DNA from: a virus
Direction: 5' to 3' (one strand)
DNA length: 64,000 nucleotides
Virus record (IMG/VR): IMGVR_UViG_3300040751_001853
Positions 1,795-62,865 of this stretch are shown here, one piece after another. The notes below the pieces were generated by a model that searched no databases, was not told where the DNA came from, and saw only the letters and a program-made list of their open reading frames with translations. The translations under genes and the position numbers were made by a program. How positions within the stretch are numbered: the first letter of the stretch is position 1; each line of letters opens with the position of its first letter.

Positions 1795-4664
1795 TTTCTT
1801 ATTATATAATCATTAATAACTAACAAATCTAATGCTGTTTTTTTAAATGTTCTTATTGCTTGTTCAGGTGTTTCTACTATAGGTTCTTGGCAATTAAAAC
1901 TTGTATTTAATAACATAGGTATACCTGTTATTTTGTAAAATTCATTTATGATATTGTAAAACTTTTCATTAAATTTTTTATTAACTGTTTGTATTCTGGC
2001 TGTACCATCAACGTGTGTAATACCTGGCACTTTATCTGATTTAACTTTACATATTCTACTCATATATGGGCTAGGAAATTTTGTATCAAAATATTGTTTG
2101 TAATGTTCTTCTAATACAGCTGGTGCAAATGGTCTAAAGTCTTCTCTCATTTTAATTGTACTATTAATAATATCTTTAATATCTGGATTACGTGGATCTG
2201 CAAGTATTGATCTATTACCTAATGCACGATTGCCACTTTCTGATTTGCCTTGAAACCATCCTACTATTTTACCATCAGCGATGGCCTGTGCTACTTCTTT
2301 GTAATCAACTTTTTCATTACCAATATAGTCATATTCTTTACCAGCAAATGTTTTTGATTTATGTATATTATTGTTTAGTGTATAGTTAGCGTGTTGATAT
2401 GTGCCTATTGACTGTCCTTCATCACCTACAGCTGGTGGTACAAATACGTTTTCATAATGTTTAGTAAATTCTTCATTCATATATCCGTTATAAGCAACAC
2501 CACCTGCAATACAAAGATTATTGCAAGATTTTAATGGATAAACGTGTTCTTTTATTTTATCTATAGTAAATTTTTGTAGGGTATATGCAAGGTCTTCGAT
2601 ACTATTTAATCTAATTTCTTTAAAGTGTTCTTGTTTTTTTTCGGTTATCTCACCTGCAAGTATTGTTTCAAATACATTATAATAATACTCACTATATTTT
2701 CCATATCCTACTTTACCCATAAGTTTACTTGCACCAAGTGTACCAAAGCCTGTTAAGTTTGACATATGATTCCATAGCCAACCAATAGGCAATTTATCAG
2801 ATAAATCAATTAAGTTTTTATTTTTATCAAAAAACACACATCTATATTTTGATCCTATACCATCAATTGCTAGTATATCTGATTGTTCAAAACCTGAATT
2901 AAGAAAGGCATATGCGGCGTGTGATTGATGGTGATCTATAAAGTAAAGATCATCTTTTAAATAATAGTCCCATAGTTTCTTCGGGTCATAATCAAATATA
3001 TCTTGTGGTAACTTATCTTTGCATTTTCTTATGCCGCCAAACGTATATGTAAATGCTAGAATGCCATTTGTACCATCTCTTTTATTTGTATCCCAATATT
3101 CTTCAATAAACTCATCATTTAATCTGTAATCGCTAGAATTTAATATATCTGATTGATGAGCATATGCTTCAGCGTGATAAGGTAAATTATGTTTAAATCT
3201 AGTAAATCTTTCTCTTTGATTATGAAACACACCATCATAGGTATTGTGGTCGTGTAAATTAAGTGCTACGGAATATATTTTTTTCACTCTTTTTTCTCCA
3301 TTATATTTTTTCAGTTCAGGATAGACATCAAATAAGCTTGCTTCCCATTTAGTGCCTTCATAATATTTATCTATTTTTAAAAGATAGTCAATTGTATCCA
3401 AATAAGACAGGCCACCATTATCTTCTTTTAAAATATTTTGAATATCAGGAAAGTTTTCGTACTTGTCTATAAGTACTTTCTTTAAATCATCTGGCAATAC
3501 ATTTGCACATAACTTTGCTGGTCCTCTTATATTAGACCAGTTAATTTGTTTAAATAGTTTTTTGTTTTCATCAAACCAGTTTATAAGTTCATAAAATCTT
3601 AATACACTTAAAAAAGATATTGTGCCATTTACATTTATTTGAACATTAGGATATTGCTTTACCGTTTTTATATTTTTAACTATATCTTCCCAATTTGATC
3701 TACGCCTAATATATTCATCTGTTTTACCTATACCATCAAGTGATACCGTAAATTCAAATAACTGAAAGTGTCTTATATAATCTGTAATCCTATATTTACC
3801 TTGTCCTAAAACAGACATATTAGTTTGAAATTTTAGTTTCATATGAGGAGCATGGCCTGTCTTTATAATTGCGTCAAGTAATTGATAAAATTGTTTCATA
3901 ACTAGTGGTTCACCACCAATCAATTTAAGATTATAAATGTATGGTGCAAATTCAACTATCTGACCTATAATATCTTTTATCTGGCCTTTAAAAGGATTAA
4001 GTTTAACATCATTACCGTGTTTAAGAGTCCATACATTCATAACCGTTTGACCTTCTAATTCTTTTGAGTTCAATGTTGTAGTTCTTGTAGAAGAGTCGTA
4101 AGTGTGGCACATATAACAATCTAAATTACATTGATTACCAAATGCTTTTATTTGCACTTCAAAAATTCTATCTTTTATGTGACCTGTTTTTGTTTCTTTA
4201 TAACGATTAACTGCCTTTCTTATACCTGCCCATATACCATCATCATTAGATTGTATCTTTAATGAGGCCTGTCGTCTGGATCTGCCATATTGTTTTTCTT
4301 GTTTAATACACGATACACACGATTTTTTTGTTAACTTTAAATCAGAGCCTGGTGTTGTCATTTCTTTTCGTAATTGATTTAGTTTAGGATCATTTTCAAA
4401 CCAATCTCTTATAGATGTATCTCTTATATTAGGACCAAATTCAGATGATCTAGCCCACGAGCATGGTGCATAATTACCTTGTATATCTGTAAATAATAAT
4501 TGAAAGGGTGCACCACAGAAAAATATATCTTGGTCTTTAATACTTTTATCTAATTCATCTAATATACAATTTTTAAACCATTCAGATGTATCTAATTTTC
4601 CATTGCCCAAATACTGATCACCTGGTCCTCCTTTAGTCAGATGTTTAGGTAACTTTTTACTCAT
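1791..4664 (-). CDS. Fusion of a radical SAM protein (N-terminal SPASM/twitch-like Cys domain) and a NodU/CmcH-family O-carbamoyltransferase
   Basis: CNLDCYMC (CxxxCxxC) and LKLIGGEPL in the N-half. HHQSHAAYAF, LAIDGIG, AGGVAYN, PPAVGDEG, RALGNRSILADP, RPFAP, HVDGTARIQTV and LLNTSFN in the C-half. Confidence 0.85.
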   Translation of the reverse strand: MSKKLPKHLTKGGPGDQYLGNGKLDTSEWFKNCILDELDKSIKDQDIFFCGAPFQLLFTDIQGNYAPCSWARSSEFGPNIRDTSIRDWFENDPKLNQLRKEMTTPGSDLKLTKKSCVSCIKQEKQYGRSRRQASLKIQSNDDGIWAGIRKAVNRYKETKTGHIKDRIFEVQIKAFGNQCNLDCYMCHTYDSSTRTTTLNSKELEGQTVMNVWTLKHGNDVKLNPFKGQIKDIIGQIVEFAPYIYNLKLIGGEPLVMKQFYQLLDAIIKTGHAPHMKLKFQTNMSVLGQGKYRITDYIRHFQLFEFTVSLDGIGKTDEYIRRRSNWEDIVKNIKTVKQYPNVQINVNGTISFLSVLRFYELINWFDENKKLFKQINWSNIRGPAKLCANVLPDDLKKVLIDKYENFPDIQNILKEDNGGLSYLDTIDYLLKIDKYYEGTKWEASLFDVYPELKKYNGEKRVKKIYSVALNLHDHNTYDGVFHNQRERFTRFKHNLPYHAEAYAHQSDILNSSDYRLNDEFIEEYWDTNKRDGTNGILAFTYTFGGIRKCKDKLPQDIFDYDPKKLWDYYLKDDLYFIDHHQSHAAYAFLNSGFEQSDILAIDGIGSKYRCVFFDKNKNLIDLSDKLPIGWLWNHMSNLTGFGTLGASKLMGKVGYGKYSEYYYNVFETILAGEITEKKQEHFKEIRLNSIEDLAYTLQKFTIDKIKEHVYPLKSCNNLCIAGGVAYNGYMNEEFTKHYENVFVPPAVGDEGQSIGTYQHANYTLNNNIHKSKTFAGKEYDYIGNEKVDYKEVAQAIADGKIVGWFQGKSESGNRALGNRSILADPRNPDIKDIINSTIKMREDFRPFAPAVLEEHYKQYFDTKFPSPYMSRICKVKSDKVPGITHVDGTARIQTVNKKFNEKFYNIINEFYKITGIPMLLNTSFNCQEPIVETPEQAIRTFKKTALDLLVINDYIIRK

Positions 4665-11128: not shown

Positions 11129-11979
11129 TTTATTAAATTATCAATTTTATTTTGTTGTTTTGTCAAACAGATTGCAGGCCTATTCCAATAAACACTACCT
11201 CCATCTTTTTTATATTTATCCCTTAAATAAATGACCTCTTTTTTGAGCCATCTAAACTCCATGAATAGTCTAGGTGCAGGATCAAAGTTAGGTTTTGTAT
11301 AGACATATGTTTCAAACTTACCTAATACATTTGTGATTGGCACCATTAGATTGTTTAGTTTAGGGTTTATAAATTTGTCATTGTATGTTATAATACCGTG
11401 ATCAGGATAATTGTGTATGTGTTTTTCTACTTCTCTATAATATATTTCATTTGTGCCTAAAAACAAATACTTAAATTGTATATCTTCTTTTACAGGTTTG
11501 TATATACTAAAGTTTATTATCTTTTCAAATTGTTCTCCCATACCATTAACATATACATCATGGTCGCATAAGTCATAAACTTTTTTAGGTTTGAAATATT
11601 GTAACGCAATAGGATATTCTTTAACATGATTTTCAGAATATACAGATATAAGATTGCCACTAAACAATAAATGTAAAGTTAGAAGTTGATCATTATTGTA
11701 AGTATGTTTATTTAAGTATGCTAAAGTCAGCTGACTTCTTCCCATAATCAATGTTATATCGTTTGATGTGGGTGTGTAAAAATCAAATATTACATTTTCA
11801 TATTTGACATAACATTCATTTAGAGCATTGATGTAAGATTGTTCAGAAAATCTATGGTCTCTTATAATTATTAGTTTTGCTTTTATACCTAAATCATTCA
11901 GAAAACAACAATGTTCATAACTATAATGTAGAAGACCATCACCAGGTTTAGTTGTACATACTATATTTACATTTTTCAT
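11104..11979 (-). CDS. Hypothetical protein, possibly GT-B glycosyltransferase-like; first gene of the leftward operon
   Basis: Long ORF directly after a consensus promoter. C-terminal YVYTKPNFDPAPRLFMEF loosely resembles a GT-B nucleotide-binding segment. Confidence 0.45.
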   Translation of the reverse strand: MKNVNIVCTTKPGDGLLHYSYEHCCFLNDLGIKAKLIIIRDHRFSEQSYINALNECYVKYENVIFDFYTPTSNDITLIMGRSQLTLAYLNKHTYNNDQLLTLHLLFSGNLISVYSENHVKEYPIALQYFKPKKVYDLCDHDVYVNGMGEQFEKIINFSIYKPVKEDIQFKYLFLGTNEIYYREVEKHIHNYPDHGIITYNDKFINPKLNNLMVPITNVLGKFETYVYTKPNFDPAPRLFMEFRWLKKEVIYLRDKYKKDGGSVYWNRPAICLTKQQNKIDNLIKCITMKNS

Positions 11980-61188: not shown

Positions 61189-61220
61189 CTTGTGGGGGTT
61201 GTGCCCCACAAGTTAACTTT
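61189..61220 (+). terminator. GC-rich hairpin, probable terminator
   Basis: CTTGTGGGG (61189-97) / CCCCACAAG (61204-12) followed by TTAACTTT. Confidence 0.6.
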
Positions 61221-61234
61221 AAATAAGGAAAATA

Positions 61235-61564
61235 ATGACAAATTTTAAAGATAATAGTGGTTTAGAAAAATACAAACCAAAAATGTCACAAGAAGAACGT
61301 GATGAAAAAATGAAAAAGTTTTTAGCGAAGGGTGGAAAGATTGAAAAATTAAAACCAGGATACCCTATTAGTGTAGGTAGCTTAGATAAAAGTAAAAAAC
61401 CAAGATATACAAAAGAAGATGTTTCTAAAGGACTTGCTGTTGGCAAAACAGCCAGACCTAATTATGATACATATAAAAAAGGATCATACCACGACTTTGA
61501 TGTTGGTGGTGATAACCCACCTAGGTGGGAAAAACAACCTAAAAATGAGATGGGAGGTAAATAA
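61235..61564 (+). CDS. Hypothetical protein with a SutA-like RNAP-binding motif
   Basis: EERDEKMKKFLAKGGKIEKLKP resembles the SutA core (ERDALAKAMEEFLSRGGKVQEIEP, recalled). Confidence 0.55.
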   Translation: MTNFKDNSGLEKYKPKMSQEERDEKMKKFLAKGGKIEKLKPGYPISVGSLDKSKKPRYTKEDVSKGLAVGKTARPNYDTYKKGSYHDFDVGGDNPPRWEKQPKNEMGGK

Positions 61565-61567
61565 TAG

Positions 61568-61810
61568 ATGTCAATTACAGTTGAAGTAAGAGGTGGCAAT
61601 TTAGAGAAGGCTATGCGTGTACTAAAGAAAAAAGTACAAAGGTCAGGAATTATGCAAAGTATAAAAGATAAAAAATACTTTTCTAAACCATCAGAAATAA
61701 AACGTGAAAAAGCAAAAGAACGTTCTAAAATAATCAGAAAAGCACAAAAGGCTAATGATGAATTGTTAGGATATACTTGGATAAAAGGTGTAAAAATAAA
61801 GAAAATATAA
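61568..61810 (+). CDS. rpsU: Ribosomal protein bS21
   Basis: VEVRGGNLEKAMRVLKKKV...YFSKPSEIKREK. Confidence 0.9.
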   Translation: MSITVEVRGGNLEKAMRVLKKKVQRSGIMQSIKDKKYFSKPSEIKREKAKERSKIIRKAQKANDELLGYTWIKGVKIKKI

Positions 61811-61852
61811 AAATTCTATGCCGTCTGTGTCTGATAAGTATATATATTATTA

Positions 61853-62042
61853 CTACAAGGCGGTTCATAAGACCTTGTAGAGGTATAGATACGTTGGGGT
61901 TGTACGTTGATTAAAAATCTAAAACAACCCATATAAATCGGTGATGTTTGGTAGTTTAACTCCGTGACAAAATGAAACTACCACTTATAGATATTCACTA
62001 GGGAACTGGTAGGGATCCTCAGCCTAGTGAATTTCTATAAGT
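61853..62042 (+). ncRNA. Candidate structured ncRNA with four consecutive hairpins
   Basis: Stems 61853-60/61873-80, 61897-903/61924-30, 61949-57/61975-83, and 61983-62002/62023-42; the strand is assumed. Confidence 0.5.
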
Positions 62043-62045
62043 AGG

Positions 62046-62078
62046 GTTGACAAATAAAATATCGTACTTATATAAATA
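62046..62078 (+). promoter_or_regulatory. Composite promoter for hsp20: RpoH-like or sigma70 plus T4 late
   Basis: GTTG-N17-CTTATAT, TTGACA at 62047 and TATAAATA at 62071-78. Confidence 0.55.
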
Positions 62079-62080
62079 AT

Positions 62081-62145
62081 ATTGAATATGCCAAATGGGT
62101 ATTCGATATAAAGATAACTTTGCTTAAACAAGGAGGTTAATTATG
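62081..62145 (+). promoter_or_regulatory. ROSE-like RNA thermometer in the hsp20 5' UTR
   Basis: UUGCU (62120-24) pairs with SD AGGA (62131-34) with a bulged G inside a 10-bp stem; a second hairpin lies at 62081-62107. Confidence 0.7.
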
Positions 62146-62586
62146 ACTAATAAAGCATTATCTATTTTCAATCAATTAAGACCACTAACCGTAGGATTTG
62201 ATGACACGTTCAGACATTTTGAATCAATGTTTGATCATCAGTTAGATCATATCCAAACTACAGCTTTTCCTTATTACAATATAGTAAAACAGGATAAGAA
62301 TAAGTACGATATTGAAATCGCACTTGCTGGTTATAATAAAAAAGATATAAACATCGACCTTGAGGAGGGTGTTTTATCTATTGAGTCTAAAAAAGACGAA
62401 AAGGAAGATACTAAAGATGGAGAAGTAATCCATAAAGGTATCGCTAAAAGATACTTTAAAAAATCTTTTACAATCGCTGAAGACGTTGAAGTTAAAGGCG
62501 CTGAACTAAAAGACGGCTTGTTAAGGGTGTCTTTAGAGAGAATAGTTCCAGAACATAAAAAGCCTAGAACTATCTCAATCAAATAA
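62143..62586 (+). CDS. hsp20: Small heat shock protein Hsp20 (IbpA-like)
   Basis: FPYYNIVK, IEIALAGY, HKGIAKRYFKKSF and GAELKDGLL. Confidence 0.95.
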   Translation: MTNKALSIFNQLRPLTVGFDDTFRHFESMFDHQLDHIQTTAFPYYNIVKQDKNKYDIEIALAGYNKKDINIDLEEGVLSIESKKDEKEDTKDGEVIHKGIAKRYFKKSFTIAEDVEVKGAELKDGLLRVSLERIVPEHKKPRTISIK

Positions 62587-62594
62587 TAAAACCA

Positions 62595-62627
62595 ATATCT
62601 GGTATGTTTCAAACGCATACCAGATAT
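62595..62627 (+). terminator. 12-bp perfect hairpin after hsp20, overlapping the next late promoter
   Basis: ATATCTGGTATG / CATACCAGATAT; weak U-tract. Confidence 0.55.
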
Positions 62628-62632
62628 AAATA
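62625..62632 (+). promoter_or_regulatory. T4 late promoter TATAAATA driving the riboswitch transcript
   Basis: Exact consensus 6 nt before the aptamer start. Confidence 0.75.
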
Positions 62633-62638
62633 CTTTAT

Positions 62639-62686
62639 ATCGTTCAACTCTTATGAGTCGGAAGTAAGCAAATGCTGAAGGAACGC
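62639..62686 (+). ncRNA. Glutamine riboswitch (glnA RNA motif, glutamine-I class)
   Basis: ATCGTTCA-ACTC ttat GAGT-CGGAAGTA-AGC aaat GCT-GAAGGAACGC. P1 CGTTC/GAACG, P2 and P3 hairpins, and conserved GGAAGUA / GAAG junction match the glnA-motif consensus. Confidence 0.85.
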
Positions 62687-62709: not shown

Positions 62710-62865
62710 ATGAATTTTAAATGGGATTTAAAAAAAATCTTTACTGAAAGAAGTAGAGAAAATTCTGCTAAAGCTCAATTGAGAAAAAGATCAAAAGACT
62801 CAATCGCAAGACCAAAAGCAGAAAAAAATATCACATCAAAAGATCCAAGATTGCAAAGCATATAG
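62710..62865 (+). CDS. Riboswitch-controlled 51-aa basic peptide (not in ORF track)
   Basis: GGAGG RBS at 62701-05. MNFKWDLKKIFTERSRENSAKAQLRKRSKDSIARPKAEKNITSKDPRLQSI, with 15 K/R vs 6 D/E. Confidence 0.75.
   Translation: MNFKWDLKKIFTERSRENSAKAQLRKRSKDSIARPKAEKNITSKDPRLQSI

Follow-up and report, generated by a model that had tools for sequence, protein, structure and literature searches.

The window, by which we mean the whole 64-kb stretch of DNA analyzed here, belongs to a T4-like phage of the SAR11 group, and its hsp20 region matches the Pelagibacter phages Mosig EXVC030M and HTVC008M with 68 to 70% identity. All three share a gene order in which a cobS-like ATPase gene and S21 are followed by hsp20 and gp45. 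The S21 (bS21) gene encodes an 80-amino-acid phage ribosomal protein on the + strand (61568-61810), as judged from its open reading frame, from homologs annotated as S21 in Mosig and HTVC008M, and from an S21 alignment. The open reading frame of hsp20 follows on the same strand at 62143-62586. The gap between S21 and hsp20 spans 332 nt, and the RNA element described here sits inside it. An earlier note had placed here a 190-nt string of four independent hairpins starting at 61830, read either as a novel phage noncoding RNA or as an origin or processing element, and had suggested a covariance search of Rfam and a survey of covariation among homologs, both of which we carried out. All four stems are present where they had been placed, and the minimum-free-energy fold of 61811-62045 reproduces them. 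Their arrangement is different from the one proposed, however: the element starts at about 61812, the closing helix (P1) begins 4 nt beyond the S21 stop codon, a variable insert accounts for stem 2, stem 3 forms one half of a pseudoknot, and stem 4 (hp4) is a separate, optional module. Stems 1, 2, and 3 correspond to the helices that we call P2, P3, and S2, while P1 and S1 had been missed.

The element matches no known RNA family that we searched. Rfam 15 gave no match in 61811-62060 at the gathering threshold, and with the limit relaxed to an E value of ≤10, the best match over the element was noise (≤20 bits), with no riboswitch family among the results. The families tested without a match include tRNA, tmRNA, RNase P, SRP, 6S, SAM-II/V, preQ1, ROSE, and IMES. 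ARAGORN called 0 tRNA or tmRNA genes at the element, so that the earlier reading of an RNA unlike tRNA, tmRNA, RNase P, or SRP is borne out. Rfam searches of 12 diverse homologous loci likewise returned no match overlapping the element, and a blastn search against 50,697 phage records returned nothing for it, with only the hsp20 part matching Mosig and HTVC008M. A literature search found no paper describing an RNA family that trails S21. The family is thus new, in that it appears in no catalogue searched and in no describing paper found, and the newness is that of an RNA family, not of a demonstrated new mechanism.

The element had also been described as GC-rich and free of open reading frames. 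Its GC content is raised, but only modestly (0.35, compared with 0.317 across the window and 0.26 in the intergenic stretch that follows). Mechanical open reading frames of 35 to 45 amino acids do overlap it in the window; across homologs, stops occur in every frame and no open reading frame is conserved. We rejected a coding reading because no frame stays open in the homologs. Two annotated "hypothetical proteins" of Mosig, Mosig_00014 and Mosig_00015, lie on the RNA and are probably not genes.

Architecture of the core RNA

We derived the architecture of the core RNA (61812-61983, + strand) from a comparison of about 60 distinct sequences. The segment from 61811 to 61980 is conserved at 70 to 97% in about 60 loci collected via hsp20, and the fold of 250 nt on the + strand has a z score of -3.85, with 0 of 200 shuffles as good. 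The 5' arm of P1, TCTATGCC (61815-61822), lies 4 nt after the S21 stop and pairs with the 3' arm, GGTATAGA (61882-61889), through base pairs that include one G.U and are found both in the minimum-free-energy fold and by covariation. P1 starts 1 to 6 nt after the S21 stop across homologs, and its helix is 92.4% paired, with compensatory changes at 7 of 8 pairs. It encloses J1/2, a 30-nt A/U-rich bulge (61823-61852; 17 to 32 nt in homologs) that carries a conserved UGAU block and a box, TATATATA (61839-61846), resembling the late promoter TATAAATA. Next comes P2 (61853-61880), an 8-bp hairpin whose strands CTACAAGG (61853-61860) and CCTTGTAG (61873-61880) covary. Its 12-nt loop (61861-61872) is near-invariant, with the consensus C-NN-YYC-R-UAAG-W; in HTVC008M, position 1 changes from C to U together with a G-to-A change at position 11. 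We considered a T-loop, an anticodon loop (UUCAUAA/UUCGUAA), and a GNRA loop, none of which fits all variants, and we recognized no kink-turn.

P3 (61896-61930) is a variable hairpin in which GGGTTGT (61897-61903) pairs with ACAACCC (61924-61930), and all 4 pairs scored are compensatory. Its length ranges from 16 to about 70 nt in relatives, and it is missing in one locus, L063. Downstream, helix S1 (61939-61964) joins CGGTG (61939-61943) to CTCCG (61960-61964), with 5 of 6 pairs compensatory, and helix S2 (61949-61983) joins TGGTAGTTT (61949-61957) to AAACTACCA (61975-61983), with 98.2% of cells paired and 4 of 9 pairs compensatory, or 7 of 7 in the nested-helix alignment. The two helices cross (S1, alignment columns 4-9 with 62-67; S2, columns 15-23 with 79-87) and both covary, as an H-type pseudoknot does. 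Loop L1 (61944-61948) is U-rich and loop L3 (61965-61974) is A-rich. Two G-C pairs of S1 are near-invariant, each in 38 of 39 sequences, and the lineage of the window also conserves a U.U in this helix.

The nested helices are paired in 91.9% of cells, compared with 34 to 48% when the 3' partners are slid, and the pseudoknot, in an S1-anchored alignment, in 92.5% compared with 35 to 49%, although fitting of the alignments to the structure inflates such percentages. Compensatory changes occur at 22 of 24 nested pairs and, in the pseudoknot, at 9 of 15 pairs; in neither case was any of 500 shuffles as good. Variants of S1 that were not fitted also show covariation (ACGCAG/CTGCGT, ACGCTG/CAGCGT, AAGGTG/CTCCTT, and TAGTAG/CTACTA). 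Alignments made with MAFFT only (A1, A2, A4, and A5) mis-register the helices, and RNAalifold recovered only 5 pairs from A2; we therefore used covariance-model alignments with a custom parser. The frequent G.U and U.G pairs in P1 and S2 place the RNA on the + strand. The core RNA is real, strongly conserved, and pseudoknotted, and its abundant compensatory changes, lack of an Rfam match, and lack of a conserved open reading frame support the novel phage noncoding RNA that the earlier note had proposed.

Within the lineage of the window, L1 (AUNUU, 61944-61948) and the 3' end of L3 (AAAN'G, 61970-61974) covary through C-G, G-C, and G.U pairs, with U-A in locus L075. This pairing is incompatible with a full S2 and is not seen in other lineages; it may represent an alternative conformer. 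Several classes of riboswitch employ an H-type pseudoknot in which L1 is rich in U and L3 is rich in A. A riboswitch-like pseudoknot sensing a ligand or temperature and controlling neighboring expression could account for two mutually exclusive pairings and would be in keeping with the RNA-regulated neighbors, a glutamine riboswitch and a ROSE-like hsp20 leader (see below). We regard it as highly improbable, since the RNA has no expression platform, with the 3' arm of S2 running into the -35 of the next promoter or into hp4 rather than into a ribosome-binding site or terminator; the absence of any Rfam riboswitch match even at E ≤10 and the confinement of the L1-L3 covariation to one lineage also speak against it.

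Linkage to S21 and distribution among phages

To follow the RNA across genomes, we used a covariance model, R1, built from 21 sequences. We fetched 80 IMG/VR loci via hsp20, and in about 85 loci obtained via this gene, R1 matched each locus once, on the + strand and immediately behind the S21 stop. A profile of the S21 protein independently recovered S21 stretches from IMG/VR, at least 491 in all, and we retained 80 of them. In 78 of these 80 loci, collected via S21 alone, an R1 match lies directly after S21 (74 at E ≤0.01). The gene downstream of the RNA varies and is not always hsp20, while S21 is constant, and the 64-kb window contains one copy of the RNA. The RNA is tightly linked to S21, lies on the S21 strand in one copy per locus, and has an architecture of P1, an A/U-rich bulge, P2 with its invariant loop, a variable P3, and an H-type pseudoknot.

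R1 gave no match in 38 bacterial S21 loci, in 151 sampled alphaproteobacterial genomes (the SAR11 share of this sample being unspecified), or in 2 genomes reached through the loci. We rejected a host origin on these grounds, and the RNA is phage-specific as far as searched. Among the genome contigs searched, the only close match to the phage S21, at 65% identity, is in locus L138 (1501-1860; NYSS01000132.1, a "Planctomycetota MAG"), where a weak R1 match of 19.8 bits follows it; the locus looks like a phage contig binned into a bacterial metagenome-assembled genome. In a relative, L100 (IMGVR_UViG_3300027801_001966), a permuted two-piece tmRNA of alphaproteobacterial type lies at 11483-11751 on the + strand (RF04321, 89 bits; RF01849, 83.5 bits), accompanied by a tRNA and about 6.5 kb from the S21 RNA.

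The family varies considerably in its parts. The RNA of HTVC008M (locus L002) is reduced to P2, P3, and the pseudoknot, without P1 and the bulge, and an open reading frame is inserted between it and S21. It lies at 2906-3000 of that locus, preceded by CATAAATA; a tRNA gene (49.5 bits, 2277-2347) is located immediately upstream of S21. Mosig has a long form of about 350 nt (L001, approximately 1512-1870) with several tandem pseudoknot-like modules, and loci L042 to L044 and L066 carry extra modules too. L041 retains P1 to P3, its pseudoknot having been lost. Only P2 is universal, and the HTVC008M and L041 forms together indicate that nothing beyond P2 is indispensable and, given the inserted open reading frame, that adjacency to S21 is not absolute. 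In the Mosig-like and L042-type RNAs, the extra modules do not repeat a single unit. Type III antitoxin RNAs (ToxI-like) consist of near-identical pseudoknots repeated in tandem beside the gene for an endoribonuclease toxin; unlike them, the RNA of the window has a single pseudoknot and neighbors S21 and hsp20.

These observations bear on whether the compact pseudoknot, with hp4 where present, is a generic protection or insulation element, not specifically linked to the S21 protein, that merely stops 3'-to-5' exonucleases and prevents read-through where the S21 operon ends. The 3' boundary of the RNA coincides in every case with the -35 of the promoter that follows, the HTVC008M RNA stays at the end of its transcription unit despite the inserted open reading frame, and the U-rich L1 and A-rich L3 fit a triplex-stabilized pseudoknot, all of which would suit such a device. 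A hairpin followed by a promoter is, moreover, the usual intergenic layout in the window, as at 62595-62627 and the TATAAATA that comes after it. However, the single copy per locus and per 64-kb window means that other operon ends do not use this RNA, the invariant P2 loop and the conserved UGAU block exceed what a roadblock needs, and L041 keeps P1 to P3 with its pseudoknot lost. We consider generic protection unlikely. The single copy, the deep linkage to S21, the position at which P1 begins, which would fall within the footprint of a ribosome terminating on S21, and the invariant P2 loop argue for a role tied to S21 instead.

The hp4 hairpin and neighboring promoters

The optional 3' module, hp4 (61983-62042, + strand), is a 60-nt hairpin of about 26 bp (-26.6 kcal/mol). 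Its stem pairs 20 bp (61983-62002 with 62023-62042) with one T.T mismatch and nested CTG/CAG and AGG/CCT pairs, and it is the strongest spaced inverted repeat in the 64-kb window. Relatives have an hp4 that is about 100% identical or have none. A 40-nt core is found exactly in 50 IMG/VR contigs, to which relaxed searches add only five variants, and hp4 has 6 haplotypes in 33 distinct sequence contexts, compared with 25 to 26 in each flank. All 50 to 55 IMG/VR copies occupy the same locus behind the S21 RNA, always directly 3' of S2. The hairpin is absent from L004, L006, and L007, whose hsp20 is 99 to 100% identical to that of the window, and is present in far more distant backgrounds. The core and hp4 are accordingly two parts with different histories. 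A search of 401 alphaproteobacterial genomes yielded only chance matches to hp4 of 14 to 17 nt.

The sequence of hp4 most likely denotes a terminator or attenuator, or an RNase III-type processing hairpin, that would close the S21 transcription unit and would be exchanged among phages as a stem-loop-plus-promoter cassette. The absence of a U-tract sets it apart from canonical intrinsic terminators, and its sequence is more nearly invariant than termination or RNase III cleavage would need. The processing element suggested by the earlier note is plausible for stem 4 only, and its suggestion of an origin found no support. The wider possibility of a DNA-level element, namely, a replication origin, a recombination site, or a protein-binding palindrome centered mainly on hp4, appears very unlikely. 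A protein-recognized DNA site would be expected to be invariant in sequence as well as in pairing, as this near-perfect inverted repeat is, and its presence/absence polymorphism resembles that of a mobile cassette; PeSL cassettes are known to mediate recombination in T4-type phages (PMC2839356). However, the rare variants of hp4 keep pairing on the + strand (an A-U to U-A flip, a C-to-U change giving G.U, and a swapped outer stem), and the C-to-U variant does so only in + strand RNA. The strand-specific G.U pairs and pseudoknot of the core make no sense for duplex DNA, the 401 alphaproteobacterial genomes searched gave no hp4 match beyond chance, and hp4 is found at one locus, once per genome stretch, unlike the dispersed PeSLs.

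PeSLs are promoter/stem-loop cassettes of T4-type phages with short G/C stems, each joined to an early promoter of sigma-70 type, and number about 50 per genome, dispersed through hyperplastic regions (Arbiol 2010, PMC2839356; Comeau 2014, PMC4122927). Like them, hp4 is a stem-loop that ends one unit and is fused to the next promoter, is highly similar between phages, and shows indels between close relatives. It differs in being a single 26-bp hairpin at one locus, with one copy in 64 kb in place of dispersed copies, in being more conserved than its promoter, and in lacking a clean sigma-70 -10 element. TTGACA (62047-62052) follows hp4 after 4 nt, the -10 region reads TATAAATA/CTTATAT, and a consensus scan called no sigma-70 promoter. 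Together with the late box TATAAATA at 62071-62078, this hexamer makes up the hsp20 promoter block (62047-62078, + strand), which lies outside the RNA and is kept next to hp4 in most hp4-bearing loci. Relatives without hp4 have CTTGAAA as the hsp20 -35, which we take to be sigma-32-like. The hsp20 leader (62082-62148, + strand) gives a subthreshold match to the ROSE_3 thermometer (22.4 bits; cutoff, 43) that covers the Shine-Dalgarno (SD) sequence and start codon, and leader and promoter are conserved in relatives. The hsp20 unit closes with a 13-bp hairpin at 62595-62627 (62585-62640 folds at -17.2 kcal/mol), which shares part of its sequence with the following TATAAATA and makes another stem-loop-plus-promoter junction. 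Beyond this TATAAATA, at 62625, lies a glutamine riboswitch aptamer (RF01739, 62639-62689, + strand; 67.3 bits, cutoff 35), ahead of a 51-amino-acid open reading frame at 62710-62865.

TATAAATA marks the late promoters of this phage: its 11 sites in the window (e.g., 12659, 28237, 42493, 62071, and 62625) are all intergenic and upstream of a + strand gene, the distribution expected of a T4-type late promoter. The late-like GATAAGTA pointed out in the earlier note is present at 61833-61840 but is not conserved in relatives, for which reason we rejected it as a late promoter; the conserved box is TATATATA/TATAAATA at 61839-61846. Each of the 57 distinct sequences has a match of at least 7/8 to TATAAATA located 10 to 15 nt upstream of its P2 loop, as an exact TATAAATA in some lineages and as NATAAATA in Mosig and HTVC008M. 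The variant in the window, TATATATA, has only 2 sites there and never stands before a gene.

A promoter in the bulge could give rise to an independent, trans-acting late small RNA, consisting of P2, P3, and the pseudoknot with or without hp4, that acts on host or phage targets such as the ribosome or mRNAs; its adjacency to S21 would then reflect only shared function or history. The box before the P2 loop in every sequence, the gene starts marked by TATAAATA in each of its window occurrences, and the presence of NATAAATA in Mosig and HTVC008M, with P1 gone in the latter, are what such an RNA would predict. The strong covariation of P1, on the other hand, requires that transcripts extending 5' beyond the box have a role, the variant box of the window never precedes a gene, and a 7/8 match is not rare in an A/U-rich bulge. 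Contig depth over the RNA, moreover, equals rather than exceeds that of S21. An independent small RNA is hence another unlikely reading.

Metatranscriptome contigs from RNA libraries of four studies run unbroken from S21 through the RNA (61200-62079, 61394-62001, 61541-62008, and 61674-61983) and are compatible with cotranscription of the two, although such contigs do not prove that the region is transcribed, from which strand, or with what ends. Over the RNA, their depth, which cannot rank the RNA against its neighbors, is that of S21 and far below that of hsp20, and so gives no sign of an abundant, free, stable small RNA. Several RNA runs break at 62050-62079; we rejected these breaks as RNA ends because their 30-nt overlaps are typical of branch points in an assembly graph. 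Adapter-flanked contig ends at 61823 and 62055 each come from a single contig. The stable RNAs rnaC and rnaD of T4, which are small non-tRNA species near translation-related genes within the tRNA cluster, offer a comparison by description only: the S21-trailing RNA is likewise a small, stable-looking non-tRNA RNA near translation-related genes of a T4-type phage, but it lies behind S21 rather than in a tRNA cluster.

A possible partnership with S21

The sequence evidence is most likely explained by an S21-linked 3' untranslated region or ribonucleoprotein element. The RNA would be made as a 3' extension of the S21 message, and the TATA(A/T)ATA box of the bulge may in addition drive a shorter late RNA beginning at P2. 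We propose that the S21 protein may bind this RNA, which is encoded in cis; candidate sites are the P2 loop and the S1 helix, with its purine/pyrimidine asymmetry. Such binding, for which bS21 on the SD-antiSD-like duplex of OLE RNA is the model, could adjust S21 output by feedback or keep S21 within a ribonucleoprotein. That the RNA works with or for S21, as a partner or in feedback, is a tentative proposal that we would place below an even chance.

The analogy has definite limits. The structured noncoding RNA OLE is bound by bS21 at a duplex that mimics the SD-antiSD pairing, where conserved G-C pairs are critical (Wencker, Lyon and Breaker 2025, PMC12054373). The S21-trailing RNA resembles this site in being a structured noncoding RNA tied to bS21, with an S1 that is SD/antiSD-like in several lineages and contains two near-invariant G-C pairs. 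In these lineages, a GGUGAU/GGAG-type strand and a CUCC(U/G)U strand make up S1 (CGGUG/CUCCG, AAGGUG/CUCCUU, and ACGGAG/CUCCGU). The likeness is not universal, which weighs against S21 binding: the ACGCUG/CAGCGU lineages lack it, and we rejected an SD-like GGUGAU in S1/L1 as a general feature because it is lineage-specific. The two RNAs also show no homology in sequence or structure, with no Rfam match, and differ in length (about 170 versus 600 nt). Unlike OLE, the S21-trailing RNA belongs to a phage, is joined directly to the S21 gene, and is organized around a pseudoknot, and it is only a candidate for S21 binding.

Ribosomal proteins S15 and S4 are autoregulated through pseudoknots on their own mRNAs. 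The S21-trailing RNA is like such elements in being an RNA structure, often a pseudoknot in their case, on the message of the ribosomal protein whose level it may sense. Those elements, however, prevent initiation from a position in the 5' leader or ribosome-binding site, while this RNA lies 3' of the stop codon and starts 4 nt after it. A further difference is that similarity to 16S rRNA was sought here and not found. In local alignments to alphaproteobacterial 16S rRNA and to its last 60 nt, 82 of 300 and 42 of 60 shuffles scored as high as hp4, and 272 of 300 and 47 of 60 scored as high as the core. We rejected mimicry of 16S rRNA by primary sequence on this basis. The dosage of rpsU itself is autoregulated in Flavobacteria through an SD-based mechanism (PMC9976891).

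In its most specific form, the proposal is that the RNA is a dedicated S21 partner. Newly made S21 would bind the pseudoknot and P2 of the mRNA that encodes it, and the resulting ribonucleoprotein would meter S21 output or deliver S21 to, or withhold it from, the host 30S subunit, with hp4 as a second recognition or processing site. This version is doubtful. Our best explanation as a whole is that 61812-61983 on the + strand encodes a member of a previously uncatalogued structured RNA family directly 3' of the phage S21 gene in T4-like myophages of SAR11 type (pelagimyophages), with an S21-partner mechanism and hp4 as a terminal module; taken with all of these parts, it is plausible but falls slightly short of an even chance.

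SAR11-type hosts are the ocean's most abundant bacteria, and phage-encoded S21 is the most common viral ribosomal protein. The RNA is a widespread new family, with 78 of 80 loci sampled from at least 491 S21 stretches in IMG/VR carrying it, and it corrects the annotation of small hypothetical open reading frames in Mosig. An RNA behind nearly every pelagimyophage S21 gives a concrete handle on how phages use S21, through which binding, feedback, and ribosome targeting can be assayed. If the proposed partnership is true, the RNA would represent an RNA-guided way for a virus to retune the ribosomes of its host.
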